Shown piece after piece: positions 13,343-43,961 of a stretch of DNA of 43,961 nucleotides. The notes under the pieces were generated by a model. It was not told the DNA's origin, did no database searches, and was given only the letters and a program-made list of their open reading frames with translations. The stretch comes from a virus. Location of the stretch: IMG/VR virus record IMGVR_UViG_3300010355_000140. One strand, written 5' to 3'. Each line of letters starts with the position of its first letter. Within the stretch, counting starts at the first letter, position 1. The translations under genes and the position numbers were made by a program.

Positions 13343-13344
13343 GG

Positions 13345-26186: not shown

Positions 26187-26273
26187 AAGTGCTGGCCAGC
26201 TTGCCAGCCAGCCAAACGCCGCGCAAGCAATCTTTCCCGTGCAAACCCGCCCGGATCATGGAAAAATCAAGTT

Positions 26274-26592: not shown

Positions 26593-26653
26593 GCGTTCAA
26601 ATTTGAGCATGAAAAATAAATTCCGCATTTTTCACTAAAAGCTAATTTGCCGA

Positions 26654-26682
26654 TTGACGCCAGCTATCCCCCTCAGTATATA
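26654..26682 (+). promoter_or_regulatory. promoter P1 (TTGACg-17-TATATA) with CTATCC..CTCAGT spacer box
   Basis: ttgacgccagCTATCCccCTCAGTATATA. First promoter of the plus arm. Confidence 0.7.
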
Positions 26683-26727
26683 CCGACCAGTGCTAGCACG
26701 AAGCTAGCCGCCAGAAAACAAACCAAA

Positions 26728-27891
26728 ATGAACAATAACGACATCCTCAAGCAGTATATCAGGGAACGCAAGCAATCCGGCGATACGTTCTTCACAACCA
26801 TTAGCGGCGTTGACATTGCCAACGCAAACCGCGACCAGCTGGCGCAATGGCTGGATGATGGTGGATTTGATGCACAAGCCATCATCACCGCATTCCGTGC
26901 CAACCAACCGGCCCCCGTGCCAACCAACCGGCCCCCGCTTCCGGACGGCTCCAAGCGCATGAGTGAGCGGCGGACGCCAGCCACTCCGGCACAATCCAAG
27001 CCAGAAGCGATGAACGCATTGCAAGCGGCACTGGCTGCATTGCTGCCAACGCAAGAGCCAGCCAGCGTCGCACTGACTCCGGAGGACCGCCAAGCCATCA
27101 TTGACGAGATCAAAGCAGAGATGGCACCGACCACCACCGTGGAGATTGTCGAAGTGGACGGGACACGCCGCGACCTTGGCCAGCAACACAAATGCTTCCC
27201 TACCCTGCTTGCGCTGGCCAGCCAGCGAATCGATTGTTTCCTTGTCGGCCCGGCTGGATCATTCAAGACCACGGCGGCGGAAGAGGTAGCCAAGGCTCTT
27301 AACCTCCAATTCTCCGCTATCAGCGTTTGCCAACAAACCACCGCCGTTGCACTCCTTGGCTACCTTAACGCCATGGGGGAATATGTCACCACCGAGTTCC
27401 GGAAACGCTATGAGGGCGGCGGAGTGTTCCTACTGGACGAGATGGACAATGGAAATGCCAACGTGCTGGCCGTTCTCAATTCGGCGCTGGCTAACAGCTC
27501 TTGCGCCTTCCCCGATGGCATGATTGCGAAGCACAAGGATTTTGTTCTTATCTCTTCCGGCAATACCTACGGGACCGGCGCGAACGCTCAATTTATCGGA
27601 CGTTGCCAACTGGACGCCGCCACCCTTGACCGCTTCGCCATGCTCGAATGGCCATACGACGAAGGAATGGAAATGGCGCTTTCCGGCAATCCTAGCTGGT
27701 GCCGCCGGGTGCAAGCCATCCGTGACGCTGCCGGTCGTCTCAATTCCAAGCTGGTCGTTTCTCCGCGTGCCACCTTCAAAGGGGCCAAGCTGTTGGCGGC
27801 TGGCATGGGTCAACGTGAAGTTGAGCAAATGCTGATTTTCAAGGGTATGGCTGACGCTGAAAAATCGAAAATCCTTTCCAACCTCCGCTAA
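26728..27891 (+). CDS. AAA+ ATPase, MoxR/CobS-like (AAA_5), with Pro-rich N-terminal extension
   Basis: Start is set at ATG 26728 (MNNNDILK), downstream of P1 and preceded by ccagaaaacaaaccaaa. The track's TTG at 26647 lies upstream of the promoter. Walker A FLVGPAGSFKTTAAEEV, Walker B VFLLDEMDNGN. Confidence 0.65.
   Translation: MNNNDILKQYIRERKQSGDTFFTTISGVDIANANRDQLAQWLDDGGFDAQAIITAFRANQPAPVPTNRPPLPDGSKRMSERRTPATPAQSKPEAMNALQAALAALLPTQEPASVALTPEDRQAIIDEIKAEMAPTTTVEIVEVDGTRRDLGQQHKCFPTLLALASQRIDCFLVGPAGSFKTTAAEEVAKALNLQFSAISVCQQTTAVALLGYLNAMGEYVTTEFRKRYEGGGVFLLDEMDNGNANVLAVLNSALANSSCAFPDGMIAKHKDFVLISSGNTYGTGANAQFIGRCQLDAATLDRFAMLEWPYDEGMEMALSGNPSWCRRVQAIRDAAGRLNSKLVVSPRATFKGAKLLAAGMGQREVEQMLIFKGMADAEKSKILSNLR
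26895..26937. repeat. perfect 20-nt tandem duplication inside the AAA+ gene (period not divisible by 3)
   Basis: gtgccaaccaaccggccccc at 26897-26916 and 26917-26936, translated in two frames (ANQPAP / PTNRPP). Confidence 0.9.
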
Positions 27892-28691
27892 TGAAATACA
27901 CACAAAGCATTTTCCGGAACGTGTCGGATTTTATGGCTATGGTCCGCCAGCCAGCACAAGTCATGGGAACAAGCGTGGACGCATCCCGTGACTCATGGGG
28001 CGGTGGATCGATGGCCAATGCGCTGGCAATGGTTGACACTGGCTGGAGTGGACGCCCGGACCTTGGCGCAATGGCCAAGGCCATGGCCATCCAAGGGAAT
28101 GCGCCCGCGCATTCCACCCGGCACGCTGTTTCCGGCGCGTTCATCGATATGGGCGAATATCTTTCCGGGATGCCGGAGTGTATGATCGATTTCATCGAAG
28201 AACCCGCCCCCCGGATCATAAAGCTAGGCGTAAACCTTGTGGCATCCGGCGCGAATAATCCGGAAGCGTTCAAACGCCGGGGCGCGGTCGTGCTGGCGGT
28301 TGTCGAATCGCTGCAAGCGGCTGGCTATGGCGTCGAAGTAACGGTGTATATGCTGGCCAGCGCCTCCGGCACATCATGGGTCAACTTGGATGCGTTCATT
28401 TTGAAGCGTGCGGACCAACCGCTGGACATGGATTCATTGGCTTTCTGGACGTGCCACCCATCGGCATTCCGGCGAATCTGGTTTGCCCTTTGCGAGCGCA
28501 AGTCATCCGACTTCCGGAGCGCGTTCGGGGTATATCGCCAAGGTGGCTACGGGATGCCAGCCACACTCCGGAACGTGCCACAAGCCAAAGAAGAGCTGGC
28601 CCTAGACCTTGAAATCGATATTGTGCCGCAGAGCATGGATGACGCGAAAAAACTTTATGAGAAAATCATGGAGCCATTCATCAACGAATAA
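27891..28691 (+). CDS. partner of the AAA+ ATPase; possible degenerate VWA-like domain
   Basis: 266 aa. Its ATG overlaps the upstream TAA (TAATG). IIKLGVNLVASGANNPEAFKRRGAVVLAVVESLQAAGYGVEV looks like a VWA beta-alpha core without a clean DxSxS MIDAS motif. Confidence 0.4.
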   Translation: MKYTQSIFRNVSDFMAMVRQPAQVMGTSVDASRDSWGGGSMANALAMVDTGWSGRPDLGAMAKAMAIQGNAPAHSTRHAVSGAFIDMGEYLSGMPECMIDFIEEPAPRIIKLGVNLVASGANNPEAFKRRGAVVLAVVESLQAAGYGVEVTVYMLASASGTSWVNLDAFILKRADQPLDMDSLAFWTCHPSAFRRIWFALCERKSSDFRSAFGVYRQGGYGMPATLRNVPQAKEELALDLEIDIVPQSMDDAKKLYEKIMEPFINE

Positions 28692-29671: not shown

Positions 29672-29977
29672 ATGAAAACTTGGAACTACCATTACAAATC
29701 CGCCGCGCAAGCCCGTAAGGAAAACCCCGGCACCGATGGCGGGGGCGCGGATGGCTTCATTTATGAAGGCCACGGCATTGGAAAGAAAATCATTGCATTC
29801 CTGCCCCACCACCGCGACCCGGCGGAAGATGTGGAACGCGAGAAAATCGCCAAACTGTTAGCCGCCGCGCCGGAGCTACTCAACAAATTGACGGAGCTGG
29901 GCATTGCGCTAGAATATACTGAGCAAAGCCATCTTTGTGCCGACATCGAAACCCTAATCCAGAAAATCACCCAATGA
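29672..29977 (+). CDS. hypothetical protein (101 aa)
   Basis: Start is set at ATG 29672 (MKTWNYHY) after ccagaaaacaa. The track's 29597 start lies inside element B. Confidence 0.55.
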   Translation: MKTWNYHYKSAAQARKENPGTDGGGADGFIYEGHGIGKKIIAFLPHHRDPAEDVEREKIAKLLAAAPELLNKLTELGIALEYTEQSHLCADIETLIQKITQ

Positions 29978-30225
29978 ACGCTAACACGCACCCCGCCTAC
30001 CTGTTGAACGTCACGCACCGAAACGCCATGAAATGGCACCGGACGCAAATCAAGCTAGCTATCCTGACCGGAGATTGGCTTTACCTCCCATGGATGATCC
30101 AAGCGTGCCGCCGTGACCGGCGCGGGATCATCCGCCAGATGCGCGAGGCATGGGCGGACTACGCCCGGCGCGAGCTGGCTGTTCTGGGTAGCTCGCGACT
30201 CATTGCAGCCATCAGGTTCTACTGA
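29974..30225 (+). CDS. hypothetical protein (83 aa, basic)
   Basis: ATGA overlap with the upstream stop at 29974-29977. Confidence 0.5.
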   Translation: MNANTHPAYLLNVTHRNAMKWHRTQIKLAILTGDWLYLPWMIQACRRDRRGIIRQMREAWADYARRELAVLGSSRLIAAIRFY

Positions 30226-30243
30226 AAACCACCTGACCCATCA

Positions 30244-30274
30244 CCGGCCCGGAAATTTTCCGGGCCGGTTTTTT
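30244..30274 (+). terminator. intrinsic terminator
   Basis: ccggcccgg-aaatttt-ccgggccgg followed by tttttt. Confidence 0.85.
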
Positions 30275-30275
30275 A

Positions 30276-30303
30276 TTGACTGGATATACTAACCGGGTAT
30301 TTT
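30276..30303 (+). promoter_or_regulatory. promoter P3
   Basis: ttgactggATATACtaACCGGGTATTTT. The -10 ends 9 nt before ATG 30313, which implies a very short leader or none. Confidence 0.6.
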
Positions 30304-30312
30304 CGTGCGATT

Positions 30313-31296
30313 ATGGGAGGTAAACACAACCGTAACAACAAGGTTCGGCAACGCGCCCAGCAATCGATCCGAAAACATGAAGCCATGAAAAATCCATTTA
30401 AGAAAAAGGAGAAGCTACCCATCAGGGTGGATAAAATAGCTGATTGGGAACTCCCGGAGATGCCGCCGTGGGAGGTGGAAATGTTGAAGGCGGAGGCAGC
30501 GAAAGCACGGCAAGACCTCATCATGCGTGAGGACCAGCAGCGTCCGCAGCACCGTCTCCTCACCGAGCGCGAGTTCACAGAGCTTCGCTTCGACCTGCTC
30601 CGCAGGGGCCGGGATGGCTTGAACACTTTCTCACACGCCGAGCATCGCATCAGCGCGAAGATCGACCCCCATGAACTGTTCAGCATCGTGAACATCTATC
30701 CGCCGCATGAAGCACGGGACAGGGTGAACCATTTGATCCACCGCGTCAACCGGGTGGAACTACGCCCGGTGATGATGCCAGCCAGTCTGTTCGAGCGGGA
30801 GATGACGCGTGAGATGGAACAGTGGATGCGTGAAGCCGATCAGGAGGTCATGCGCCAGCTTCTCAAGAGCGGCATGTTTCCGCGTCCCGGCGAACACCCG
30901 CCGCTCCGGGATGACGTGCGCGAGAAGATCGACAACATGTTCCCCAAGGTTTCATTCAAAATGGAGCCACCACCAGAACTGGTCAGGCTGCAAAAGCGGA
31001 TGACCGAGCTGGATGCCAAAGGGCATTTCAAAGGCCGGAACTGCCGGACCAATTTCTTCGTGGGCGACAAGCTGCGGGCGATCGACCATAAGGTCATCCG
31101 GGGCCACTTCCGCGAGTGGGGCTATCCGGGCAAGGTTTTCGAGCTTTGCTATCATTCCGTGACCCCCGTGGAAATCTTCCCCGCCGAGCTGGAAGGTGCC
31201 GATGGGATGCAGATGGTCGTCCTTGAATTGAATCTTGACATCGGTGCGGTCGTCCTACCGGGCTACCTTTTCGAGCTGCATCCGGACGACGCTTGA
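30313..31296 (+). CDS. hypothetical protein (327 aa), very basic N-terminus
   Basis: Long ORF in the arm's orientation. No motif recognised. Confidence 0.65.
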   Translation: MGGKHNRNNKVRQRAQQSIRKHEAMKNPFKKKEKLPIRVDKIADWELPEMPPWEVEMLKAEAAKARQDLIMREDQQRPQHRLLTEREFTELRFDLLRRGRDGLNTFSHAEHRISAKIDPHELFSIVNIYPPHEARDRVNHLIHRVNRVELRPVMMPASLFEREMTREMEQWMREADQEVMRQLLKSGMFPRPGEHPPLRDDVREKIDNMFPKVSFKMEPPPELVRLQKRMTELDAKGHFKGRNCRTNFFVGDKLRAIDHKVIRGHFREWGYPGKVFELCYHSVTPVEIFPAELEGADGMQMVVLELNLDIGAVVLPGYLFELHPDDA

Positions 31297-31335: not shown

Positions 31336-33690
31336 ATGGACATCCTGCAATTTCTCCCATCCGAACTCCGCGCTGCCGCCAGCAAGCTACCACCAGACAA
31401 GGCTCACACCGTCCTGACCCTCCCGCCCGAGGGCGAGGGCCACAATGCCGGTCTGGTCCGCGTGGCGGCGATCTGCTACCGCATGGGGGTGTCTTTCGAG
31501 GACACGCTGGCACACCTCAACGAAATCTACGCCTCTGACCGGCTGGATTACCGCACGGCACCGCGCCGGGCTGTCCAGCGGATTTGGGAGCGCAACGGGG
31601 AGATGCCCGAGGCGGGCGAGGAAGACACCATCCCGGACCATCAGGAGGAGTTCCTGCTGCGGTTCCGGCGCACGCCAGCCAGCCAGCTCATCGAGATGTC
31701 GCCGGAGTCGGTGAAGCAACGCCCCACGGCCATCGTCCGCCAGCTGTTCAAGCCTGAGCAGATCGTCAACGTCCAGTTCGGCAAATTCGAGGCGGGCACA
31801 CTGTTCAAGGTGGCTGACCTGCCCGATGACCTCCGCGAGTATAAGTTCCTCAACCCCTCCCACTTCAAGAAGGTGGAAGGCGTGCCCAACCCGCTCGACG
31901 GGGATAAGATCGCGACACGCTGCAATGCCAACGTGAAGGAGCGGCCCTACCTCGTCCTCGAAATGGACAGCAAGGATGATTCCAAGATCGAGCGGTTCAC
32001 GACGTTCGCCATGGAGCTTTCCAAGTTCGCGCCCATGGTGATGGCCGTGGACACGGGCAACAAATCGATCCACTTCTGGTTCGACGCACGCGACGAGGAC
32101 AAGGACCGCGTGCAGGCAATTTTCAAGCTGGCTGTTCTCCATGGGGCGGACAAGCAGATGGGTGTTAAATCCCAGATCGCACGGATGCCGAACGTGAGCG
32201 CATCCGATGAAGGCCGGGCCGCACAGCGTGTCCTCTACTTCGATCCCGAGGGCACCAACTATCCGGACAATGGCTGGGACGTGGCTGGCTTCGAGAAGTT
32301 CATCAAGCAAGCCCGGCAGCTCGAATACTACTATGACGGTAGTAGCGGGAAGTATTACGCGCAGAGCAACTCCGAAGCATGGATCGCGCTGGGCCGCACG
32401 TCCCTCACCAACCAGCTGGCCGGGCAAGGCTTCCGCGTCATGAAGCTGGAGGGTGAGGTTCTTTCGCCGGTTGAGATCACGATCAATGCGATCGAAATGG
32501 ACAAGTCGATCGAAGCGGCCATGAAAGGCGCGAGCGGTCGCCACGCTGGCTACTATGAGGAGAACGGCTTCCGGCTCTTGGTCATGAAGTCGCCGACGTT
32601 CATCAAAGCCCGCAAGGGCAAGTGGAAGACGATCGATGGGTTTCTCCGACACCTTCTTGACCACACACCCGAGCAATACGATGTCTTCATGGGTTGGCTG
32701 GCCAGCTCCGCCAAAGACCTCCGCAACGGTGGACGCCGCCGGGCACTGTTCTCGCCCGCGCAGTTCATGCACATCACCGGCCCGGCGGACTCCGGCAAAT
32801 CCCTCCTTCTGAAATTCATCCTGCCTGCGATTTTCGGCGGGCGCTCCGCTGACTGTGACGCACTGTTCGAGGACAAGGGAGCCAGTTTCAACTCCGACAT
32901 GTTCCAGAGTGAGCTGCTCTATCTGGATGACTCCGATGTGCTGCAAACGGACCACAAGTTCCGCGCCAAGTTCGGCGAGCGGATCAAATCATTCACCGTG
33001 GGAGCCGGTGGTAGCTACCACCAGAAATTTGGTGATAAGGTGCCGGTCGCCCCATGGTGGCGGTTCATCCGCCTCATGAACGAGGAGCCGCAGACCATCG
33101 CCACGCTGCCACCGCTGGAGGATGGCGTTGCCGACAAGATCATCATCCTGCGGGGCCAGAAGATGGACGGCGGGCCGATCGACAAGAGCAAGCCCGGCTG
33201 GTTCGAGCCGGTGCGTGAAGCGATTGAAAGCGAGCTGCCCGCGTTCCTCCACCATCTGTTGGAGGAATACCGCATCCCCGCCCACATCCAAGACCCGTCG
33301 AAGCGGTATGCCGTGAAGAGCTACCACAACGCCGACATCCTCACGCTGCTCGCCGAGGATAGCCCGGAGAGCTACCTTCACCACAAGATTTCCACCGATG
33401 CCTACAACCGTCTGTTCGTCGGTCTGGACGAGGATCAGCCGGAGCCATGGGAAGGCACCGCCAACGAGCTTTACACCCTTCTTTCGGAGACGGGCACCCG
33501 GAACGCGCAGGAACGATTCCGGAAGACATGCCCGTCTCCGAAGGTCTTGGCCAGCCAGCTACGTGCTGCGGCCAAAGCCCATCCTGACCAGTTTGTCTAT
33601 TCCGCGCCGAAGAAGAAAAACGGCGTGTATTTCTGGACAGTCAACCCTCCCGGTGTAACCCCAATCGTAACAGAAGATGACATCTTTTAA
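31336..33690 (+). CDS. bifunctional primase-polymerase (AEP) / SF3 (D5-like) helicase ending in VTEDDIF
   Basis: 784 aa. AEP-like motifs YLVLEMDSKD, TGNKSIHFWF and KSQIARMPN. Walker A ITGPADSGKS, Walker B LLYLDDSD. Confidence 0.8.
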   Translation: MDILQFLPSELRAAASKLPPDKAHTVLTLPPEGEGHNAGLVRVAAICYRMGVSFEDTLAHLNEIYASDRLDYRTAPRRAVQRIWERNGEMPEAGEEDTIPDHQEEFLLRFRRTPASQLIEMSPESVKQRPTAIVRQLFKPEQIVNVQFGKFEAGTLFKVADLPDDLREYKFLNPSHFKKVEGVPNPLDGDKIATRCNANVKERPYLVLEMDSKDDSKIERFTTFAMELSKFAPMVMAVDTGNKSIHFWFDARDEDKDRVQAIFKLAVLHGADKQMGVKSQIARMPNVSASDEGRAAQRVLYFDPEGTNYPDNGWDVAGFEKFIKQARQLEYYYDGSSGKYYAQSNSEAWIALGRTSLTNQLAGQGFRVMKLEGEVLSPVEITINAIEMDKSIEAAMKGASGRHAGYYEENGFRLLVMKSPTFIKARKGKWKTIDGFLRHLLDHTPEQYDVFMGWLASSAKDLRNGGRRRALFSPAQFMHITGPADSGKSLLLKFILPAIFGGRSADCDALFEDKGASFNSDMFQSELLYLDDSDVLQTDHKFRAKFGERIKSFTVGAGGSYHQKFGDKVPVAPWWRFIRLMNEEPQTIATLPPLEDGVADKIIILRGQKMDGGPIDKSKPGWFEPVREAIESELPAFLHHLLEEYRIPAHIQDPSKRYAVKSYHNADILTLLAEDSPESYLHHKISTDAYNRLFVGLDEDQPEPWEGTANELYTLLSETGTRNAQERFRKTCPSPKVLASQLRAAAKAHPDQFVYSAPKKKNGVYFWTVNPPGVTPIVTEDDIF

Positions 33691-33934
33691 TCCACGGCTC
33701 TGCTGCATCTGTGGCATCCGTCTCACCAACACAAACAAGCAGGCCACTGTCTGCTCCTACGCCTGCCGCATGGCACGCGACAACAACATCACACGGGAAC
33801 GGGCCATCCGTCTCTTTGGTGAGTATGAACACACCCAGAATGCCCGCCCCGAGCGTTACCGGAAAACGACCGGCAAGACCGGTTCCGTCACGATCGGCAA
33901 CATGAGCATCACCGGGAGGGTCCGCTATGATTGA
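33677..33934 (+). CDS. small zinc-ribbon protein (85 aa)
   Basis: CCICG...CSYAC cysteine pairs. 14-nt overlap with the primase stop. Confidence 0.5.
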   Translation: MTSFNPRLCCICGIRLTNTNKQATVCSYACRMARDNNITRERAIRLFGEYEHTQNARPERYRKTTGKTGSVTIGNMSITGRVRYD

Positions 33935-34118
33935 TAGCCGGTTCAAGTTGAACGAAGCGGACCTAAAGGCCGCATTCGATGCCGGGGTCCAGTATGCCAA
34001 AGACCCAGCCCGGTCAGCTAGCTTCAAGCACTGGCTAGCTGTTCAGGAATGCTACGCCGGGTTCGAGCTGTCGAAGGAAGCTCTCACGAAAGAAGTTTCT
34101 GAATCGGATATTTTCTGA
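33927..34118 (+). CDS. hypothetical protein (63 aa) ending in SESDIF
   Basis: 8-nt overlap with the upstream gene. Acidic C-terminal tip ending in Phe. Confidence 0.5.
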   Translation: MIDSRFKLNEADLKAAFDAGVQYAKDPARSASFKHWLAVQECYAGFELSKEALTKEVSESDIF

Positions 34119-34146
34119 TTGACGGGTATATCCTAACCAGTAAATT
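34119..34146 (+). promoter_or_regulatory. promoter P4
   Basis: TGAttgacgggTATATCCtaACCAGTAAATT. The -10 ends 7 nt before ATG 34154, the geometry expected for a leaderless mRNA. Confidence 0.6.
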
Positions 34147-34153
34147 TCCCGTC

Positions 34154-34663
34154 ATGCCAAAGTTACATTACGTCAAATCCGCACAAAAAGACAACTCCGT
34201 CGTGAAGAAGGGGCAACCCTACTGGTGGGCGAAGTTCAAAACCGGCCCATACACTTCACTGAAAAAGATGTGGGCCACGCGGCCCCGCCCGAGCCAGATG
34301 ACAATGTCGGTCTATTGGGGTCCAGTGTATGCGGTGCAGGAACACTTCGAGGACAGCACCATCGGCGACCTCGACGACATGCAGCCGCTCATCGACGATC
34401 TAGTCCAACAGGTGCAGGAAATTCTCGACGAAACGCAGGAGAAATTCGACAACATGCCCGAAGGACTCCAACAAGGTGACACTGGCCAGACGCTTGAGGA
34501 ACGCATCGGCAATCTTGAGCAGGTCGTTTCCGATCTCGAAAGCATCAACATCCCGGAGGATTCCGACTATGATGTGGACACCGATGGTGAGAAAGAGGAC
34601 TGGCTGGAAAGCCAGATCGATGACTTCCGCGCCGAGGTTGAAAACGCGCTCGCCAATTTCTAA
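34154..34663 (+). CDS. hypothetical acidic protein (169 aa)
   Basis: ORF directly downstream of P4. The C-terminal half is strongly acidic. Confidence 0.6.
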   Translation: MPKLHYVKSAQKDNSVVKKGQPYWWAKFKTGPYTSLKKMWATRPRPSQMTMSVYWGPVYAVQEHFEDSTIGDLDDMQPLIDDLVQQVQEILDETQEKFDNMPEGLQQGDTGQTLEERIGNLEQVVSDLESINIPEDSDYDVDTDGEKEDWLESQIDDFRAEVENALANF

Positions 34664-34691
34664 CTCTCCCAACAAACCAAAAATAGAAAAC

Positions 34692-35069
34692 ATGAACATC
34701 AATGTGACCATCCCCGCCCTCGACCGCCTCGTGGATTTCCTCGAAAAAGCGATCGGAGAAAAACTGCCCGGTTTCACCCCCGGCGCACCAGCCGCAGCTG
34801 AACCAAAGCCGAAGGGCAAAGGCAAAGCCGCACCGGCTGAAACTCCAGCTCCCGAAGCCGAACCCGAGAAGGCACCCGAAGGGCCGACCCTCAAGGAAGT
34901 CGAAGAAGCAGCCCGTGGCTACATCGCCAAGACCAGCCCGGCGGCGATCCGCAAACTGCTCGACGACAACGGCTTCAAAGGCAAGAAACTCGGTGAAGTC
35001 GATGCCAAGGAATATCCGAAGCTCCTCGAAGTCATCAGCAAGGCCACCGCAGAAGCCGACGTGATCTAA
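34692..35069 (+). CDS. hypothetical protein (125 aa) with Pro/Ala/Lys linker
   Basis: Start is set at ATG 34692 (MNINVT) after ccaacaaaccaaaaatagaaaac. The track's 34476 start overlaps the previous gene. Confidence 0.55.
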   Translation: MNINVTIPALDRLVDFLEKAIGEKLPGFTPGAPAAAEPKPKGKGKAAPAETPAPEAEPEKAPEGPTLKEVEEAARGYIAKTSPAAIRKLLDDNGFKGKKLGEVDAKEYPKLLEVISKATAEADVI

Positions 35070-35183
35070 CACCTTCCTACCTAGGACGGACGGAACTAAT
35101 GAAGTTCGGTGTTTATAGTAGCTACCATCACTCAAGTCATAGTCACTGAGAAAACTGCTACCTCTGGTTCCGTTCGAGACTCA

Positions 35184-35214
35184 CCCGCCATTCCGAAAGG
35201 GATGGCGGGTTTCT
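35184..35214 (+). terminator. intrinsic terminator (GAAA-tetraloop hairpin)
   Basis: cccgccattcc-gaaa-gggatggcggg followed by tttct. The T-tract is short. Confidence 0.6.
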
Positions 35215-35221
35215 AGGTGCC

Positions 35222-35446
35222 ATGGGTTCACGTCCACTCAACATACCTGACCCGCCGCCACCTACGCCTGTTATATGGGAGCTGGAGCGCAAGGAACTCA
35301 TATTCATGACCCCGAAGGGGCCGGTCCCCATTCAATGCCCCAGCTGTGGAGCGCCAATGGTGTCCGCGTTCGTGTGCGACTACTGTGGCACCAAGTTTTT
35401 CAACCAATATGACAACACCAGCAGACGCCAACCACCCGCACTATGA
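35222..35446 (+). CDS. small zinc-ribbon protein (74 aa)
   Basis: CPSCG...CDYCG motif. Confidence 0.5.
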   Translation: MGSRPLNIPDPPPPTPVIWELERKELIFMTPKGPVPIQCPSCGAPMVSAFVCDYCGTKFFNQYDNTSRRQPPAL

Positions 35447-36725
35447 GTGGGGCGCTTCCTCCGCCAAGCAATGGCGCGGGTGCCCCGGCTCAGTAAACCT
35501 CGTCATTCAGAAGAAAGCCGAGGGTGTGATCCCCAAAGACACCAGCACGCGCTTCTCCGACGAAGGCACGCAAGCCCATGATTGGGCCGACAAATGCCTG
35601 ACCGGAAAGATCAAGCGGGCTGATATACCAGCCGAGTTCCTCGAACATCTCGGTGGCTACCTCGACCTAGCTGGCGAGCTGGCCATGGAGAACGGAGGGC
35701 AGGTCTTCAACGAGCAACAGGTCAAACTTTTCTACTCGAAGAAGCCGGAGGATTGGGACACCAATCCGATCTATTTTGTTGAAGACATACGCAATGGTGG
35801 AATGATTCCACCGGGCGAGTGGAAACAAGCAACCGGCACACTCGACTACGCGGTGGTGAGCAACGATCGCGTTGACATCCTCGACCTGAAATACGGTGCG
35901 GGTGTGTTCGTGGATGCCAGTGAGAATGACCAGCTGGCTATCTATGCCCTCTCCCTGATGAAGCAGTTCGAGGAAGCATTCGAGTTCACCGATGACACGA
36001 TCGTCCGGTGCAACATCTATCAGCCGCGCCACCGTGACTTCGACGGCGTTGCTTCATGGGAATGCACCTACCGTGAACTCAAGGACTATGGCATTGACAT
36101 CGAGCGCGACTACAAGGCCAGCAAGGCGGCGTCGATCCATGACCTCAAGCCATCGAAAGATGCCTGCCAGTTCTGTGATGCCCGCCGTGGCTGCACGGTG
36201 CGGGTAGCCAGCTTGTTCGAGGACATCCCGGACGAAGCCAACCCTATCAGCTCCAAGTTCGATCCGTCGAAGCTGGAAGCCGAGGGTGTGACCGATCTGG
36301 TGCGCCTCCGCGTGTTCGAGAAGGGCAAGGAAATCGCCAAGTGGTTCGCCGATGTCAACGAAGACTCGCTCGCCATGATCGAGCGCGGTGTGCCGATCAC
36401 CGGTCTGAAATCCGTGGACGGTGGCAAGGGCAACCGCTCATGGGGCAATGAAACTGATGCCGCGAAACTCCTTCGTGAGCTGCCAGCCGAGGTGAAGTTC
36501 CTCCCGCGCCGTCTGATCTCCCCGGCGCAGGCCGAAGCCGCACTCAAGAAAGCCGGTCTGCCATTTGAAAAGCAGTCCACGAAGTTCAAGAACCGGTGGA
36601 AGCAGATCATCAAGCAGGCCGAGGGCAAGCCTTCTCTGGCGCTGGAAAGCGACAAGAAACCGGCCCGTGTTTCCGCCCCGGAAAAGTTCGATGACGAAAC
36701 AATTACGGAAGATGACGTTTTTTAA
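35409..36725 (+). CDS. PD-(D/E)XK / Cas4-like exonuclease (DUF2800-like) ending in ITEDDVF
   Basis: WGASSAKQWRGCPGS near the N-terminus. LDLKYGAGV core. C-terminal Cys cluster DACQFCDARRGC. Start ATG 35409 is preferred; 35346 is an alternative. Confidence 0.7.
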   Translation: MTTPADANHPHYEWGASSAKQWRGCPGSVNLVIQKKAEGVIPKDTSTRFSDEGTQAHDWADKCLTGKIKRADIPAEFLEHLGGYLDLAGELAMENGGQVFNEQQVKLFYSKKPEDWDTNPIYFVEDIRNGGMIPPGEWKQATGTLDYAVVSNDRVDILDLKYGAGVFVDASENDQLAIYALSLMKQFEEAFEFTDDTIVRCNIYQPRHRDFDGVASWECTYRELKDYGIDIERDYKASKAASIHDLKPSKDACQFCDARRGCTVRVASLFEDIPDEANPISSKFDPSKLEAEGVTDLVRLRVFEKGKEIAKWFADVNEDSLAMIERGVPITGLKSVDGGKGNRSWGNETDAAKLLRELPAEVKFLPRRLISPAQAEAALKKAGLPFEKQSTKFKNRWKQIIKQAEGKPSLALESDKKPARVSAPEKFDDETITEDDVF

Positions 36726-36752
36726 TTGACGAACTATCCTCACCAGTATAAT
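36726..36752 (+). promoter_or_regulatory. promoter P5 (best match: TTGACG ... TATAAT)
   Basis: TAAttgacgaaCTATCCtcACCAGTATAAT. The spacer is only 15 nt. Confidence 0.65.
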
Positions 36753-36802
36753 TCTCCCAACGTCCACGACGGACATCCAAACAAACCAAAACAGAAAACA
36801 AG

Positions 36803-37492
36803 ATGAACAAAGCAAAATTCGACGCCGCCCTCCAGCCACTCCTTCAACCTATCTCCGAGTTGCTCGCGGAGCATGGTGTGGATTCCGGCACTCTCAGTTT
36901 CAAAGTCAGCCCGCTCGATGTGGGCTGGGAAGTCAAAGCGGTGGGAGGTGGCAAGCCACGCCTGTCCACGGAAGAGTTCGAGAAGAAGGTCCGCAGCTCC
37001 CCGCTGGGTGCCGCCCTCACGAGTCTCTTTGGTGCCGACATCGTCAACGCAGCGTTCGCCGACATGCGCGGTGAGAAAGAAGCTGCTGATGTCGAACCCA
37101 ACGCCGCCCAGCTCAAGTGGGGTGTTGAAAACCTCGAACGTATCAACGCCGTCGCTCCGCACCCGTTCACGGCGGAGGATGTGGGTGAAATGGTCAAGGT
37201 CTTCATCAACGAAGCCCCACCCAAAGACCTCCACGGGTATGACGAGGTCGTTCGCTTCCGCGAGGAACTCGCCGAGCTGGCTGGTGTTCGCACCATCCCA
37301 ACCTCGAAGATGGTGGACTACGTCACGGCCAACGCTGCCCGCATCTCGAAAGCCAGTGGCATCCCGGCGGCTGATGTGGTCGCCGAGGCATACCGGATCG
37401 CGGAGGAACTCCTGAACGATCGCGAGCCTTGCGGGTGTGGCAAACCTGATTGCTTCGACACGTTCGCCAAGGAACTCCGCGCCATCAAATAG
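36803..37492 (+). CDS. hypothetical protein (229 aa)
   Basis: ATG is preceded by aaaccaaaacagaaaacaag. No motif recognised. Confidence 0.6.
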   Translation: MNKAKFDAALQPLLQPISELLAEHGVDSGTLSFKVSPLDVGWEVKAVGGGKPRLSTEEFEKKVRSSPLGAALTSLFGADIVNAAFADMRGEKEAADVEPNAAQLKWGVENLERINAVAPHPFTAEDVGEMVKVFINEAPPKDLHGYDEVVRFREELAELAGVRTIPTSKMVDYVTANAARISKASGIPAADVVAEAYRIAEELLNDREPCGCGKPDCFDTFAKELRAIK

Positions 37493-37494
37493 CC

Positions 37495-37563
37495 AAGCCC
37501 TTCGGGGCAATGCGACCTAGCCAGTAGCTAGCCGGTCCCAAGTCCGGATGAACGCAGAGGGAC
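37495..37563 (+). promoter_or_regulatory. AATGCAG composite element, copy C (variant boxes aatgcga / aacgcag)
   Basis: Hairpin gccc-ttcg-gggc at 37497-508. Box1 at 37509-15. Hairpin ctagc/gctag at 37517-31. ccggtcccaagtccgg at 37532-47. Box2 at 37551-57. gggac pairs with gtccc. Confidence 0.65.
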
Positions 37564-37582
37564 AACCCAACATACCAACATA

Positions 37583-37960
37583 ATGAAAACAATCATCGCC
37601 GCCAATTACTTCAACCGTAAAGACAAAGACAATCGCTGGCTCACCCGTCCTTTCGATGTCGAAGAGCCGGAGGAAAAGGACTGCCAACTCCACGCCGGGC
37701 TTATCATCGGCAAGGCGCACGCCATCACCAGCCCGGAGTTCGAGGAGGGCTTCGGTTGCTCCGTGGTTCTGGAAACCGAGGACTCCACCGCCGAACTGGC
37801 CAAGGACTTCGACATCACCAGTTTCAAGGCAGCTGGCTACGTCCAGCTGAAATTCGATGGTTATGCCTTCTGCCCGGTGAAAACCTTGCTCAAAGTGGAA
37901 CACTTCGACGGCATCATTCTCTTGCCGAACGGTGAGATGTGGGGCAAGATTTCGGAGTAA
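37583..37960 (+). CDS. hypothetical protein (125 aa)
   Basis: ORF follows element C and an A/C-rich leader. Confidence 0.55.
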   Translation: MKTIIAANYFNRKDKDNRWLTRPFDVEEPEEKDCQLHAGLIIGKAHAITSPEFEEGFGCSVVLETEDSTAELAKDFDITSFKAAGYVQLKFDGYAFCPVKTLLKVEHFDGIILLPNGEMWGKISE

Positions 37961-38040
37961 GCCCTCCGGGGCTAATGCAGCCCGGCTACTAGCGTTCTAG
38001 TAGCTGGCCGGTCACAAGCCCGGATGAATGCAGAGTGGCC
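37961..38040 (+). promoter_or_regulatory. AATGCAG composite element, copy D
   Basis: Hairpin gccc-tccg-gggc at 37961-72. Box1 at 37974-80. 11-bp hairpin at 37982-38007. ccggtcacaagcccgg at 38008-23. Box2 at 38027-33. gtggcc at 38035-40 pairs with ggtcac at 38010-15. Confidence 0.7.
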
Positions 38041-38056
38041 CAAACCAGAAAACACA

Positions 38057-38692
38057 ATGGAACTCAAGGTAAAAAACGCACGCTTGTCCTTCGCCAACAT
38101 TCGCAAACCCTATACTCCCAAGACGGGGGATGCGAAGTATCGCTGCAATCTCATTTGCGACGAGAACACGAAGGTCGAGATCAAGAAGGAAGACGGCACG
38201 AAGATCACCGTCCCGCATCACCGCATGCAGGAGATCATCGATAAAATCCTCAAGGACAAATGGGGCAAGCTGCCCGGCAAGTTGGAGAACTATCTCTACA
38301 ACCGCGCCGACACGCAGGTTGGCCCACGCGGTCCGATGCTCAACACGGACGGCGAATACTACGAGGGCTACGACAAGGACACCATGTTCTTCGCTGCCGG
38401 TGCCAAGGTCGCGGATCGCCCCGAGGGCATCCTTATCATCGACCAGAAGCGCGAGCCGTTGCCAGCCAGCTCCGGCCACCCTGTCAGCGGTGACTATGTG
38501 AACGCGATCATCAACGCGTTCGCCTACGAATACGAAGGCAAGAAGGGTGTGTCCGCCTCGCTCGACGCGATCCAGTTCCTCCGCAAAGGGAAACCGTTCG
38601 GTGCCACCCGCGCCACGGCGGATTCCTTCGACGAGGAAGAGCTGGAGGACGAAGAAGAGGAAGAAGCCGATGACGGCGGTGGCATCTTCTGA
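38057..38692 (+). CDS. ssDNA-binding protein (DUF2815-like) with acidic tail ...EEEEADDGGGIF
   Basis: Start is set at ATG 38057 (MELKVKNARLSF) after ccagaaaacaca. The track's 38024 ATG lies inside box 2 of element D. Position is between the nuclease and the polymerase. The C-terminal tip is SSB-like. Confidence 0.65.
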   Translation: MELKVKNARLSFANIRKPYTPKTGDAKYRCNLICDENTKVEIKKEDGTKITVPHHRMQEIIDKILKDKWGKLPGKLENYLYNRADTQVGPRGPMLNTDGEYYEGYDKDTMFFAAGAKVADRPEGILIIDQKREPLPASSGHPVSGDYVNAIINAFAYEYEGKKGVSASLDAIQFLRKGKPFGATRATADSFDEEELEDEEEEEADDGGGIF

Positions 38693-38717
38693 TAGCTATC
38701 CTAGCTAGTTTGACTCA

Positions 38718-38750
38718 CCCCTTGGTCCCTCGCTGGGCCAAGGGGTTTTT
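38718..38750 (+). terminator. intrinsic terminator after the SSB gene
   Basis: ccccttgg(t)ccc-tcgct-gggccaagggg followed by ttttt. Confidence 0.8.
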
Positions 38751-38757
38751 GGGCGCA

Positions 38758-39240
38758 ATGAAAACGACACATCGCATACATCCAGCAGGGGACAGCTTCG
38801 GCTCGTTCATCATCCTTATCCTTGTGATCCTCGTCATCTCCGCGATCGGCGGCTGCATGTGGGGGATGCCCAAGTATCGCATCTACTCCCAGACCCTTCG
38901 TGGCGAAGCCATGCTGCGTGAAGCGGAGTGGACCAAGAAAGTCATGGTGGAGGAAGCACGCGCCAAGGAGGACGCCGCCACCATGATCGCCAAGGCTCGC
39001 GTCACGCAGGCCGACGCGGAAGGGCAGGCGGAAGTCGTGCGGGCCACCGCCACGGCGAAAGCCAACGGCATCATTGGTGAATCGCTCAAGGGCAATGAAG
39101 CCTACCTCCGCTACCTCTGGATCATGGGACTCCATGATGGCAAGGGTGAGCGCATCTACATCCCCACCGAGGCTGGCTTGCCAATCCTCGAAGCTGGCAA
39201 GGCCGGTCACGTCGCACTGGAGCAACCCGCTGCCAAGTAA
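38758..39240 (+). CDS. membrane-anchored protein with SPFH/band-7-like C-terminal helical region
   Basis: Start is set at ATG 38758, after the terminator. TM segment FIILILVILVISAIGGCMW, then an Ala/Glu-rich helix (AKARVTQADAEGQAEVVRATATAKANGIIGESL) and ...YLWIMGL...IYIPTE. Confidence 0.4.
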   Translation: MKTTHRIHPAGDSFGSFIILILVILVISAIGGCMWGMPKYRIYSQTLRGEAMLREAEWTKKVMVEEARAKEDAATMIAKARVTQADAEGQAEVVRATATAKANGIIGESLKGNEAYLRYLWIMGLHDGKGERIYIPTEAGLPILEAGKAGHVALEQPAAK

Positions 39241-39243
39241 TCC

Positions 39244-39828
39244 GTGACCATCAAGTTCCCCCACGCCTACCTGTTCCGCGATGTCTCTCCGTCCACACTG
39301 GCACGGAAGAAGGCGGAAGGTGTTTGCCGTCACTACGGCTGCACCAATCAGGCTAGGCGTGGGGGTTCCGATTGTGAGACGTGCAAGTCCCGCAAGTCCC
39401 GGCTAGCTAACCCTGTCCGGTATGCTTTCAACATGCTCAAGGTATCAGCCGCCAAGCGGCACATTCCTTTCGAGCTTACCTATGAGGAGTTCACCGAGTT
39501 CTCCATAAAAACCGGTTACGTCGAACGCATGGGCCGAGGTCCAGCCGACCTCACCGTTGACCGCATCCGGTCCAGTGAGGGTTATAGAATCGACAACATC
39601 CGTGCCCTCACCTACGAGGACAACGTGGCGAAGAGACTGGAGGGTATGGAATACCCGTTCGATCCTATCGCCAAACTCATTCACGATTTCAAGGGCACGC
39701 CGGACATCAACTGGCGTGCGTTCCGTTCACAAGCTGGAGAGGTTTATGACTTGATTACCCGACTCCAAGGGTATGAAGTTGCACCCGAGATTGCACCCGA
39801 CGAAGACGATGACACCAACCCCTTCTGA
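39244..39828 (+). CDS. HNH-family endonuclease with N-terminal Cys4 finger, ending in DEDDDTNPF
   Basis: GTG start. CRHYGC...CETC finger. LTVDRIRSSEGYRIDNIRALTYEDN is an HNH_3-type motif. Confidence 0.6.
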   Translation: MTIKFPHAYLFRDVSPSTLARKKAEGVCRHYGCTNQARRGGSDCETCKSRKSRLANPVRYAFNMLKVSAAKRHIPFELTYEEFTEFSIKTGYVERMGRGPADLTVDRIRSSEGYRIDNIRALTYEDNVAKRLEGMEYPFDPIAKLIHDFKGTPDINWRAFRSQAGEVYDLITRLQGYEVAPEIAPDEDDDTNPF

Positions 39829-42091
39829 CATCTACCACATCGATTACGAAACCTATTCGGGTGCGGACATCTCCGATGTCGGTGCGTTCAAATACATCGA
39901 GCATCCTGATTCCGAAATCCTTATCATGGCTATCGCCAAGAATGACGAGGAGCCGGTCGTGTGGGATGCGTTGGATAGAGGTATCGATGCGATCCTCATG
40001 CTCCACGAGGCGATCGAATCCGGTGCGGAAATCTGGGCGCACAACGCTCAGTTCGAGATGGCTGTCAGCAACCAGCTGATCCAAAACACATTCAACTTCG
40101 CGCCCCCGGCCACCGAGCAATGGCATTGCACCGCCGCTCTCTGCCGCTTGGCCGCGATCCCCATGTCACTGGCTGGTGCCGGATCATTCCTCAACACACA
40201 TGTCCAGAAGGACACCGAGGGCGACCGGCTCATCAAGAAATTCTGCTGCCCGCAGAAGCCCACGAAAAAAGACCCGCGCACACGCATCTATCCGAAGGAT
40301 GATCCGGAAGACTTCCGCCGGTTCGTTAGCTACTGCGTGGATGACGTTCGCACCGAGCAGGCGATCTACCGGCAGATCAAACCAATCGACCAGCCCAACC
40401 CCGGCCACAAGGGCTACCGTGCCGATGCACGTATGAATCTCCGGGGCATCCCGGTCAACGTCGATGCGCTCAAGAAAGCCACCGCGCTGATCGAGGAATA
40501 CGAGGCGCGTCTGGTGCCGCAGTTCCGGGCGCAAACCGCAAGCGCGGACACCATCACCCTGCCGATCACCAGCCAGCGCAAGGCACCGAAGGTCGTCTCA
40601 CTGGAGGAGGGCTTCAACCCCACACAGACGGAGATGCTCAAGGCATGGCTCAAGCAGCGTGGCTATACCGACGACAACCTCCAAGCGGCGACCGTGGAAT
40701 GGTGGCTGACCGAGGGCAAGGGCTTGCTCACCAAGCAGGCTTACGCCGTGCTGACCACGTTCAGCCAGATCAACTTCGCCGCCGTGAAGAAAATCCCGGC
40801 GATGCTCCGCATGGCGATGGAGGACGGCTACGTGCGCGGTGCGCTCATGGTCTATGGCGCGGAGCGCACACACCGCTGGACCGGCAAGGGAATCCAGCCG
40901 CAGAATTTCGCCCGGCCCACGATCAAGTTCACCGAGCTGGCGTATGAGTGCATCTGCAACGGTGCCACGATCGAGGAGATCGAGGCGCTGTTCGGCCCGC
41001 TCTATCAGGTATTGGCTAGCTGCATCCGCCACTTCATCCAGCCGCACGACGGCATGGTGTTGCAGGCCGACTACTCCGCGATCGAAGCCCGCGTTGCCCC
41101 ATGGTTGGTGAACGCCGAAGCCAAGCTGGATATGTTCCGCCGCAAGGAGCCGATCTATGAAATGCAGGCAGGCCGGATTTTCCACAAACGATATAGCGAT
41201 GTGGATAAAGATGAACGGTTCTTGGGCAAGCAGGCGGAGCTGGGCTGCACCTACAACATGGGCAGGCCGAAGTTCCGAAGCACCTGCGAATCCTATGGCT
41301 TCACCCCGTCCGCCAAGATGATCGAGGACTACAAGCCACGTCACAAGGCGTTCGTGAAAGCCGCGATCGACAAGGTCAAGAACGACATGGCCAAGAAGTT
41401 CGAGGCGAAAGGGGTAGCTATCCCAGCTAAGTATAACACCGACGAGTTCTACCAGAAGCGGACCATGGAGGCGAACAAGTGGCCGACGCTGGACCCGCAG
41501 ACGGAGGAGGAGTGGAGCCACTTCACCTTCGACGATCTGGCCGACCGCGCCGTCACCGCATGGCGTGAAGCCAACCCCACCATCGTGAAGTCATGGAGGC
41601 AGCTGGACGTTGCCGCCAAGTCGGCGATCGAGAATCCGGGCGAGACGTTCACCGTGGGCAAGCTGGCTTTCTGCATGAAGGAAACGCTGGGGTATCCCTG
41701 CCTGTTCATGAAGCTGCCGTCCGGGCATTTCCTCTGCTACCCGAGGGCGACCGTCGAACAGAACACCGCCAAGGGCTGGGGCACGCACATCCGTTTCTGG
41801 GGTGTTGTCCCGAACTCCGGCGGCACATGGGGCTGGTGTTCCACCTACGGCGGCAAGCTGCTGGAGAACGCCACGCAGGCCACCGCAGGGGATGTGATGC
41901 GCGAGGGCATGTATGCCGCAGAAAGCGCGGGCTACCAGCCATTCATGTTGGTTCACGACGAAATGCTTACGCTGCAACTGGCTGGCCAGACCCATGAGGA
42001 ACTCTGCCGCCTGCTCTGCACCATGCCCGGCTGGGCCAAAGGACTTCCGCTGGATGCGGAGGGATCGACGATACCTTTCTACAAAAAGTAA
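39809..42091 (+). CDS. family-A DNA polymerase with 3'-5' exonuclease domain
   Basis: ExoI IDYETYS, ExoII AHNAQFE, motif A DYSAIEARV, motif B KQAELGCTYNMG, motif C MLVHDEM. Start ATG 39809 overlaps the HNH gene by 20 nt. Confidence 0.9.
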   Translation: MTPTPSDIYHIDYETYSGADISDVGAFKYIEHPDSEILIMAIAKNDEEPVVWDALDRGIDAILMLHEAIESGAEIWAHNAQFEMAVSNQLIQNTFNFAPPATEQWHCTAALCRLAAIPMSLAGAGSFLNTHVQKDTEGDRLIKKFCCPQKPTKKDPRTRIYPKDDPEDFRRFVSYCVDDVRTEQAIYRQIKPIDQPNPGHKGYRADARMNLRGIPVNVDALKKATALIEEYEARLVPQFRAQTASADTITLPITSQRKAPKVVSLEEGFNPTQTEMLKAWLKQRGYTDDNLQAATVEWWLTEGKGLLTKQAYAVLTTFSQINFAAVKKIPAMLRMAMEDGYVRGALMVYGAERTHRWTGKGIQPQNFARPTIKFTELAYECICNGATIEEIEALFGPLYQVLASCIRHFIQPHDGMVLQADYSAIEARVAPWLVNAEAKLDMFRRKEPIYEMQAGRIFHKRYSDVDKDERFLGKQAELGCTYNMGRPKFRSTCESYGFTPSAKMIEDYKPRHKAFVKAAIDKVKNDMAKKFEAKGVAIPAKYNTDEFYQKRTMEANKWPTLDPQTEEEWSHFTFDDLADRAVTAWREANPTIVKSWRQLDVAAKSAIENPGETFTVGKLAFCMKETLGYPCLFMKLPSGHFLCYPRATVEQNTAKGWGTHIRFWGVVPNSGGTWGWCSTYGGKLLENATQATAGDVMREGMYAAESAGYQPFMLVHDEMLTLQLAGQTHEELCRLLCTMPGWAKGLPLDAEGSTIPFYKK

Positions 42092-43811: not shown

Positions 43812-43961
43812 CACACCAAGCACTCGCGATCGATCATCTGATTGCCCACCCCATCGCCGGTCTGTTCGCCGGGATGGGGCTGGGCAAAACTGCTTCCACG
43901 CTGGCCGCGCTCGACCACCTGTTCGTGAATGGCATGAGCAAGGGTGCGCTTATCATCGCCC
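43793..43961 (+). CDS. SNF2 helicase, 5' part (continues at nt 128 of the window after removing the 127-nt overlap)
   Basis: The ATG at 43793 gives MGFQPLTHQALAIDHLIAHPIAGLFAGMGLGKT..., in frame with the ORF at 1-1413. Confidence 0.8.
   Translation, partial: MGFQPLTHQALAIDHLIAHPIAGLFAGMGLGKTASTLAALDHLFVNGMSKGALIIA
43835..43961. repeat. 127-nt terminal overlap identical to nt 1-127 (circular assembly signature)
   Basis: Direct comparison of both ends. Identical over all 127 nt. Confidence 0.95.

Follow-up and report, generated by a model that had tools for sequence, protein, structure and literature searches.

In the bacterial protein that binds single-stranded DNA (SSB), an acidic run followed by a hydrophobic, Phe-terminated free C terminus is read by a pocket, and in the β-clamp motif QL[SD]LF and the PIP box a short portable peptide places polymerases, nucleases, methyltransferases, and ligases on one platform. 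In phage T7, the tail of gp2.5 and the gp4 tail peptide DTDF bind the front basic patch of the polymerase, and the bound DTDF is seen in PDB entry 6P7E (PMC12339929), whereas in phage T4 the C termini of gp43, gp55, and gp33, which are carried on divergent flexible linkers and are interchangeable, bind one hub (gp45) that couples replication to another process (PMC2988020). The present analysis concerns IMG/VR virus record IMGVR_UViG_3300010355_000140, a stretch of 43,961 nucleotides (the window), in which several unrelated proteins end in an acidic run and two hydrophobic residues. These C-terminal tips are conserved in homologues, agree within a genome, differ between genomes, and change in concert. 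A segment of 127 bp recurs unchanged at both ends of the window (1-127 and 43835-43961), an assembly overlap, and the window is therefore a circularly assembled, complete phage genome of 43,834 bp, with a G+C content of about 58%.

The original prediction was that five proteins of the replication arm share an acidic, Phe-terminated tip. All five of the C termini that it quoted are present in the sequence, and its coordinates are exact for the helicase, the 63-residue protein, and the nuclease, but the eight residues of the SSB tip occupy 38666-38689 (not 38669) and the nine of the HNH tip 39799-39825. Its functional assignments also hold, although that of the HNH protein is by PHROG only. Four of the five are carriers of the common tip, but the small terminase subunit had been overlooked and the HNH tip belongs to a separate class. 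The carriers, together with one doubtful case, are as follows (aa, amino acids).

25671-26186, minus strand: small terminase subunit, 171 aa, Pfam Sf6_terminase (5.9e-24) and phrog_1482 (8e-24), ending ..VVVVTEDDVF; tip VTEDDVF at 25674-25694, minus strand, codons GTC ACA GAG GAT GAC GTT TTC.
31336-33690, plus strand: prim-pol/SF3 helicase, 784 aa, Pfam DUF5906, ending ..PIVTEDDIF; tip VTEDDIF at 33667-33687, plus strand.
33927-34118, plus strand: 63-aa protein, no family match, ending ..EVSESDIF; tip at 34098-34115.
34154-34663, plus strand: 169-aa protein, phrog_4068 (2e-13), with a very acidic C-terminal half, ending ..ENALANF; doubtful.
35346-36725 (probable start 35409), plus strand: DUF2800 / PD-(D/E)XK exonuclease, Pfam DUF2800 (6e-52) and phrog_69 exonuclease (2e-68), ending ..TITEDDVF; tip ITEDDVF at 36702-36722, plus strand.
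38024-38692 (database start 38057), plus strand: T7 gp2.5-type ssDNA-binding/annealing protein (the SSB), Pfam Enc34_ssDNA-bd and phrog_112, with the tail ..EEEEEADDGGGIF (..EEADDGGGIF); tip at 38666-38689, plus strand.
39244-39828, plus strand: HNH-like endonuclease, PHROG endonuclease families only, ending ..PDEDDDTNPF; tip at 39799-39825.

The last six residues (TEDDVF) are common to the small terminase and the exonuclease. The 169-aa protein is an ambiguous carrier, having a terminal Phe but no acidic residue at position -2; endings in NF occur on the SSBs of relatives, and no orthologue of this protein was found in the retrieved loci described below.

No close cultured relative was found among 50,697 GenBank phage records, searched with the replication arm by megablast and with the helicase by tblastn, and relatives were therefore drawn from metagenomes. 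These gave 81 helicase homologues of 39-70% identity, many on contigs of 40-44 kb. In a profile of helicase ends (n = 80, two truncated homologues being dropped and the window tip added), 96% have a hydrophobic last residue, at position 0 (F 44, L 10, M 10, I 7, W 4), 95% have either Cys or a hydrophobic residue at position -1 (C 35, L 26, M 8), and 86% have an acidic one at position -2, whereas the 5-25 residues that precede the tip vary freely. All 30 of 30 SSB homologues end with an acidic run and a hydrophobic end. In the small terminase, 20 of 150 representatives are tip-like, among them 10 of the 14 closest.

Some 30-odd loci around helicase homologues were retrieved, from genomes that span 38-58% G+C, and orthologues of the carriers were mapped in each. 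The tips of a genome agree with each other and differ from those of other genomes: the lineage tip is EDD[IV]F in the window and elsewhere DCF, DCI, DCL, EPCF, DFM, HPLL, DWA, or ML. Representative endings are given below by genome.

Window: small terminase TEDDVF, helicase TEDDIF, nuclease TEDDVF, SSB GGGIF.
L010: small terminase TDDDCF, helicase EEDCF, nuclease EDDCF, SSB EATCF.
L032: small terminase EQEPCF, helicase EDEPCF, nuclease GEEPCF, SSB DDDVCF.
L028: small terminase TEDDCY, helicase STEDCY, nuclease PEDCF, SSB DENF.
L002: small terminase not found, helicase DEDCI, nuclease EGDCI, SSB DDDSI.
L014: small terminase without a tip, helicase PEDCL, nuclease EDDCL, SSB DDSI.
L030: small terminase not found, helicase DLLDFM, nuclease ADEDFM, SSB TTEDFM.
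L031: small terminase not found, helicase EVEHPLL, nuclease EDEHPLL, SSB GASDLL.
L009: small terminase not found, helicase DSSWA, nuclease DEDWA, SSB EEDWG.
L019: small terminase not found, helicase ALEML, nuclease LEGML, SSB TELGL.

The terminase of L001 ends in TVDDCF, and the terminase orthologues of L001, L010, L028, and L032 each fit the tip of their own genome. A permutation test over 17 non-redundant genomes scored identity at each of the two terminal residues. Helicase and nuclease share 24 positions against 8.5 expected, with exact agreement of the dipeptide in 10 of 17 genomes against 1.7 expected, and helicase and SSB share 20 against 6.6 expected (p <= 5e-5 in each case). When all genomes with CF tips are removed, 16 identical positions are still found where 4.3 are expected. 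As a control for the relatedness of the genomes, identity was counted over the last three residues; it is 61 within genomes, as compared with 35 when the partner is taken from the nearest-neighbour genome. There are exceptions, namely a nuclease that ends in DTVD (L008), a degenerate case (L029), and the clade L013-L016, in which the terminase lacks a tip.

The conservation is at the level of the peptide. The last 21 nucleotides of the terminase, helicase, and nuclease genes are identical at 16 of 21 positions in pairwise comparison, GAT GAC being common to all three, but they differ at synonymous sites (GAG/GAA, GTC/GTA/ATT, TTC/TTT), and it follows that selection acts on the peptide; the claim that this is not a repeated DNA cassette is thus borne out. 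Phe is the terminal residue of 7 of about 50 genes in the window as compared with 5 of 340 ORFs in other frames (Fisher test p = 8e-4, computed on 6 Phe endings among 49 genes of a greedy gene set). Among the ORFs of 40 aa or more that the window contains, only five end in [IV]F after at least two acidic residues; all five are real genes, and no ORF in another frame of the window has the pattern. An identical scan of phage T7 picks out only gp2.5 (EDGDF) and gp4 (NDTDF).

The tails on which the tips are carried are predicted to be flexible because the per-residue confidence (pLDDT) of the tail falls below 50-65 in AlphaFold2 models that are otherwise confident. In the SSB model, the core has a pLDDT of about 95 and the tail less than 50; in the helicase model, the mean is 85, but values fall from 65 to 49 over residues 771-784. 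Foldseek matches the SSB model to 4klk (DUF2815), the Enc34 SSB (5odl), and T7 gp2.5 (1je5), with a probability of 1.0 for Enc34 and gp2.5, so that by its modeled structure the protein is of the T7 gp2.5 type, and matches the helicase model to NrS-1, MPXV E5, vaccinia D5, and ASFV PrimPol.

The window resembles T7 in having an SSB of the same fold family, in having on both SSB and helicase an acidic tail whose final residue is aromatic or hydrophobic, and in having a family A polymerase that lacks such a tail. The helicase tip VTEDDIF and the SSB tip DDGGGIF are tails of the same kind, and the tips co-vary over the 17 genomes. However, T7 has two carriers, whereas the window has five and one of the second class and relatives have up to six; the tail is not limited to SSB and helicase but is found here on a terminase, an exonuclease, and the 63-aa protein and in relatives on HNH nucleases, an AAA+ ATPase, and two DNA-modifying enzymes, a methylase and a Mom-like protein. 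Nor is the helicase homologous to gp4, being an AEP prim-pol/SF3 (D5-like) enzyme, and in place of the Asp-Phe of T7 the last two residues are both hydrophobic, or Cys and a hydrophobic residue. The similarity to T4 lies in the sharing of a hydrophobic and acidic C terminus on a variable linker by unrelated proteins, an arrangement of many plugs and one socket. Unlike T4, no clamp or clamp-loader gene is recognized among the window proteins scanned, and the clients, which in T4 are the polymerase and transcription factors, are here a terminase, nuclease, SSB, and helicase, with no sequence similarity. The bacterial SSB tip DDDIPF is most nearly matched by the tip DEDDDTNPF of the HNH protein and by the helicases that end in ..DPF, but the bacterial hub has one tip and many receptors, whereas here there are many tips and, presumably, one receptor; the bacterial tip is also nearly invariant, whereas these diversify between related phages. 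As with the clamp and PIP clients, a nuclease and a methylase are among the carriers, but the window tip, T-E-D-D-[IV]-F, and the profile of the CF clade, with E/D/S/T rather than Q/L, are unlike the consensus QL[SD]LF, to which only the LADLF/LGDLF clade is loosely similar; clamp and PIP motifs also need not be at the extreme C terminus, and their platforms are rings, none of which was found among the proteins scanned here. The system thus operates in the manner of the T7 tails and the T4 clamp epitopes without belonging fully to either group, because its helicase is not of the gp4 type, its clients extend beyond the replisome, no clamp is recognized, and its tips diversify rapidly in concert. 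A literature search on DUF2800/DUF2815, on acidic tails with terminase, and on shared C-terminal motifs found nothing that describes such a code, which is not proof of its absence.

When every ORF of each genome is scanned for that genome's own dipeptide following acidic residues, further carriers appear in the relatives. They include an N6/N4 DNA methylase (..PLGDLF, L024), a Mom-like DNA-modification protein (..ITEDDCF, L003), HNH endonucleases of other families (..ITENDCF in L010, ..SIEDMM in L025), an AAA+ ATPase (..NTDDCF, L032), and small unknown proteins; in L032, 6 of 26 independently called genes end in acidic residues and CF. The motif is therefore portable between unrelated folds, and the code, which had been described as a feature of the replication arm, extends beyond it both in the window, through the small terminase, and in relatives. 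One of the small carriers, a 58-aa ORF directly 3′ of the helicase in L021, ends in EVTEDDCF, the tip of that genome, and its position matches that of the 63-aa protein of the window.

The code is also not a peculiarity of one small genome, as had been supposed, but is present in a whole phage family and in cultured phages. The best match of the DUF2800 nuclease among GenBank phages, at 30% identity, is in Bordetella phage BPP-1 (L034), in which five proteins share a [DG]L[VI] C terminus.

25734-26318: terminase small subunit (Bbp26), ..PAAGLV.
29758-30513: Bpm methylase, ..GVADLI.
34130-35386: DUF2800 exonuclease (Bbp38), ..TVEDLV.
35559-36107: SSB (Bbp40), ..AAADLV.
39043-39249: Bbp45, ..PAGGLV.

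The polymerase, SNF2 helicase, and large terminase of BPP-1 have no tip. Pseudoalteromonas phage AL has a T7-like set, consisting of the primase (..EDYF), p53 (..SGDF), and SSB (..EDDF). The survey of related phages that had been suggested as a check is thus strongly positive, and the idea of a shared peptide-level docking code gains support from the conservation of the tips in 80 helicase, 30 SSB, and the closest terminase homologues and from their co-variation within genomes.

In contrast, the HNH-like protein, which the original prediction had placed in the same code, departs from it. Four of five orthologues (window; L024, 14609-15283; L030, 13582-14166; L031) have a ..PF ending whatever the tip of the genome, and the fifth (L009/L011) ends in ELWEDD; the endings are DENCPF, NYTPF, and NEDPF where the genome tips are LF/LM, FM, and LL. 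The ..PF ending is thus a second tip class that does not co-vary. Its nearest chemical counterpart is the tip DDDIPF of bacterial SSB. The class may address a different partner, possibly of the host, and a host SSB-binding protein could be one such partner. A related observation is that the helicases of L012 (3584-5938), L013 (5635-7986), L015 (9983-12337), and L016 (10004-12382) end in a composite ..DDCMDPF or ..EDSLDPF, which resembles the family tip (DDC-hydrophobic) with an ending of the ..DPF class added to it; the nucleases of this clade keep a plain EDCL or CDCI tip.

It is possible to propose a mechanism, although docking itself and its site are inferred. The tip would be a short linear docking motif in which a variable, flexible linker leads to between two and four acidic residues and then to two hydrophobic residues at the free C terminus, and all carriers would plug into the same receptor pocket, which would have a basic rim and a hydrophobic hole and would read the two terminal hydrophobic residues, the free carboxylate, and the preceding acidic residues. 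The receptor could thereby gather enzymes of replication, recombination, DNA modification, and packaging initiation on replicating phage DNA, where the carriers might work as a toolbelt or by competitive hand-over. Since a single socket must accept every plug, any alteration of the socket would force all the plugs of a genome to change together, and each lineage would have its own tip. That a single receptor serves all of the tips is very probable. Its nature is a matter for more cautious statement: a replisome protein encoded by the phage itself, recognizing a genome-specific C-terminal docking motif, is the assignment that we tentatively prefer, and the narrower proposal that this protein is the family A polymerase is put forward more tentatively still. 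The polymerase is favored by the precedent of T7, in which suppressors of a tip mutation mapped to gene 5; it is always present, is never tipped, and is accompanied by an SSB that is a gp2.5 homologue. SNF2 helicase and the large terminase are also possible receptors; in P22-type phages, the large terminase is contacted by the C-terminal tail of the small subunit. Two tipless proteins of the window are as follows.

39809-42091, plus strand: family A DNA polymerase, Pfam DNA_pol_A and phrog_17, ending ..PFYKK.
Starting near 43694, plus strand: SNF2-family helicase, an ORF that crosses the circular junction, with its 3′ part at 40-1413.

Among polymerase homologues, the twelve commonest four-residue endings, which account for 106 of 120 sequences, are all of the basic ..YKK type, and none is a tip; tips were never found on SNF2 helicase and large terminase orthologues among those examined.

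Several observations weigh against the polymerase, or against a code of this kind as a general feature of the module. In L030 (15263-17266) and L031 (18224-20218), the polymerase belongs to phrog_1252 and not to phrog_17, and yet the tip code is intact and co-varies strongly. The stretch of the polymerase between motif B and DDLADRAV is hypervariable, with 42-109 aa and a net charge of -4 to +13, and a consistent basic patch is not seen in this one variable insertion. In BPP-1, the primase lacks a tip, whereas the terminase, methylase, nuclease, and SSB have one; helicase-polymerase coupling therefore cannot be the whole story, and we know of no precedent for the docking of a terminase or methylase on a polymerase. 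The SSB tips are often only chemically similar to the others (GGGIF in the window; DENF in L021, L022, and L028). Finally, no shared tip is seen in Xfas53 and APSE-1, both of which encode homologues of the polymerase, SSB, and nuclease, from which it follows that the code is lineage-specific and is not an automatic property of the DUF2800/SSB/PolA module. As to other kinds of reader, no clamp, PDZ, or TPR-like protein was recognized among the window proteins scanned; for the clamp family, this covers 20 replication-arm proteins searched against Pfam, PHROGs, and NCBIfam, several small ORFs being without a family and the structural arm not being included. The variable insertion of the window polymerase (about 41300-41570, residues about 500-575) is Lys-rich. 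Mapping of the front basic patch of T7 by profile reached only the motif A/B region of Pol I enzymes, T7 gp5 not being among the 60 matches listed.

A different socket is offered by the phage's own gp2.5-type SSB, whose ssDNA-binding groove could receive tails that mimic ssDNA, the carriers serving to hold free SSB, to load it (an exonuclease acting with its annealing partner, as in Exo/Beta), or to displace it from the ssDNA on which they must act. An SSB of this type is present in every tip-code genome with the SSB region recovered, including L030, L031, BPP-1, and AL, and an exonuclease and an annealing protein are natural partners. The tail of the T7 protein competes with ssDNA for the OB groove, and in the Enc34 crystal the tail sits in the groove of a neighboring molecule (PMC5686142); AlphaFold2 is also reported to place the gp2.5 tail in the groove (PMC12339929). 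For the window SSB, however, AlphaFold2 (with a 30-sequence alignment) left the tail unplaced, the pLDDT being below 50 at residues 205-211, a result that is uninformative to weakly negative. Moreover, it is the SSB tips that fit the others least well, Xfas53 and APSE-1 have the same SSB family without shared tips, and a tip on a terminase or methylase is not obviously explained. The SSB groove ranks second among the candidates and is regarded as an unlikely socket.

Somewhat less likely again is a socket provided by the host, such as the β sliding clamp or another replication hub, in which case differences between tips would reflect differences between hosts. Co-variation within a genome is equally expected if the tips adapt to one host pocket, and the range of 38-58% G+C among the relatives suggests that their hosts are diverse. 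The tips of one clade (LADLF, LGDLF, VNDMM, IEDML) resemble the loose end of QL[SD]LF or QADMF, but neither the Gln nor the second Leu of the clamp motif is present in TEDD[IV]F or in the commonest ending, EDCF, and DWA/DWG, EHPLL, and EPCF are far removed from it. No clamp gene is recognized among the window proteins scanned, as would suit reliance on that of the host, which phage Mu is reported to enlist. Clamp-binding C termini are found on unrelated proteins in T4 (PMC2988020). However, the strict C-terminal position of the tips points to recognition of the carboxylate, which clamps do not require, and the clamp pocket is highly conserved, yet tips differ between close relatives such as L013 and L014, whose helicases are 89% identical. 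The DLV tips of BPP-1 are, in addition, unlike the SSB tail DDDIPF that is conserved among proteobacteria.

Two further explanations carry a very small probability. In the first, the tips would be a shared degradation or remodeling tag, read by a protease or AAA+ machine (host ClpXP or Lon, or a phage AAA ATPase), that times the removal of early and middle proteins. Tagging at the C terminus is an established principle, co-variation would likewise follow from a shared reader, and the phage has an AAA_5 ATPase at 26647-27891, but known bacterial C-terminal degrons are non-polar or basic rather than acidic. The SSB and terminase are needed late, the AAA+ protein of L032 is itself tipped, and the tail of T7 gp2.5, the closest homologous system, serves in binding and not in turnover (PMC12339929). 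The second, just as improbable, is that there is no common partner and that each acidic tail folds back on the DNA-binding surface of its own protein, an autoinhibition by DNA mimicry, the likeness between tails being one of chemistry alone. All carriers bind or cut DNA, and removal of the acidic tail raises the DNA affinity of T7 gp2.5 and T4 gp32 (PMC5686142), but such a mechanism cannot explain why unrelated folds share EPCF, EHPLL, DFM, or DWA within a genome and change jointly, or why the window heptapeptides are nearly identical, and it is disfavored by the co-variation. An origin by chance, through biased composition, from a repeated DNA cassette, or from purine runs of Shine-Dalgarno type at the ends of genes has practically no likelihood and is rejected by the data, for although acidic codons are purine-rich and GAT GAC is common to three tips, the tips differ at synonymous sites, the pattern is on no other-frame ORF and is conserved and co-varying across genomes of 38-58% G+C, and no ribosome-binding site overlaps the nuclease and terminase tips, the next genes being 78 nucleotides 3′ of the nuclease and about 400 nucleotides 3′ of the terminase.

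Should the tips prove to be plugs for one receptor, membership of the DNA-transaction factory could be read from C termini alone, including that of small proteins of unassigned function, the 63-aa protein being an example. That the carriers include the small terminase and DNA-modifying enzymes suggests a direct coupling of replication with packaging initiation and DNA modification, which to our knowledge is known only indirectly, in T4. The logic of the tails is familiar from T7 and T4; what would be new is a sequence-readable client list for a hub that ties replication to packaging and DNA modification. As related phages switch their tips in concert, they would provide a natural experiment in the co-evolution of motif and receptor, exploitable for orthogonal recruitment tags. 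The idea can be put to a direct test in BPP-1, which can be cultivated and in which the phenomenon is also seen. A more far-reaching version, which is speculative and rather doubtful, is that the tips constitute a private, rapidly co-evolving C-terminal address code, read by a phage-encoded hub other than a clamp, that couples replication to methylation and terminase loading; lineage-specific tips would keep the network orthogonal, preventing cross-talk with co-infecting relatives or escaping host defenses that sense SSB-type tails of phages, and would represent an incompatibility barrier readable from sequence.

Two candidate carriers were rejected. The 125-aa protein at 34692-35069 ends in AEADVI, but its orthologues (for example, L021 7048-7497 and L010 8320-8694) do not follow the tips of their genomes. 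It lies between the helicase and the nuclease and has an N-terminal helix, a linker rich in Pro, Ala, Lys, and Glu, and a C-terminal domain, with no family match. The C5 DNA methylase of L028 appeared to be a carrier through the tip ..KPSPIITEEDCY, but this is read in the +1 frame across the final ~60 codons of the gene (13180-13359), and the methylase's own frame ends in ..TLADHH at 13343; the +1-frame tip could be the product of a frameshift that appends it, an indel in the assembly, or a coincidence. With regard to individual endings, the sequence of a 12-15-residue tip peptide is GVTPIVTEDDIF, and in BPP-1 Bbp41 ends in DDFEAV and Bbp44 in DDFEVVA.

The genes of the window are arranged in two arms. 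The minus strand from about 1.4 to 26.2 kb carries the large and small terminase subunits and, presumably, the structural genes, and the plus strand from 26.6 kb carries in order the AAA_5 ATPase, a DUF7192 protein, the prim-pol/helicase, the DUF2800 exonuclease, and the gp2.5-type SSB, and further on the HNH-like nuclease, the family A polymerase, VRR-NUC, and SNF2. The AAA_5 ATPase (MoxR/CobS-like, phrog_249) and the DUF7192 protein form a pair that spans 26647-28691 at the head of the plus-strand arm and is also found in L022 and the P0002 contig. A dGTP_diPhyd_N (PF18909) protein, which is not in the window, is encoded in L024 (13318-13767), L026 (6996-7451), L027 (7541-8029), and L030 (1035-1775), and this family assignment is a hint that some members of the phage family manipulate the nucleotide pool or have modified bases.

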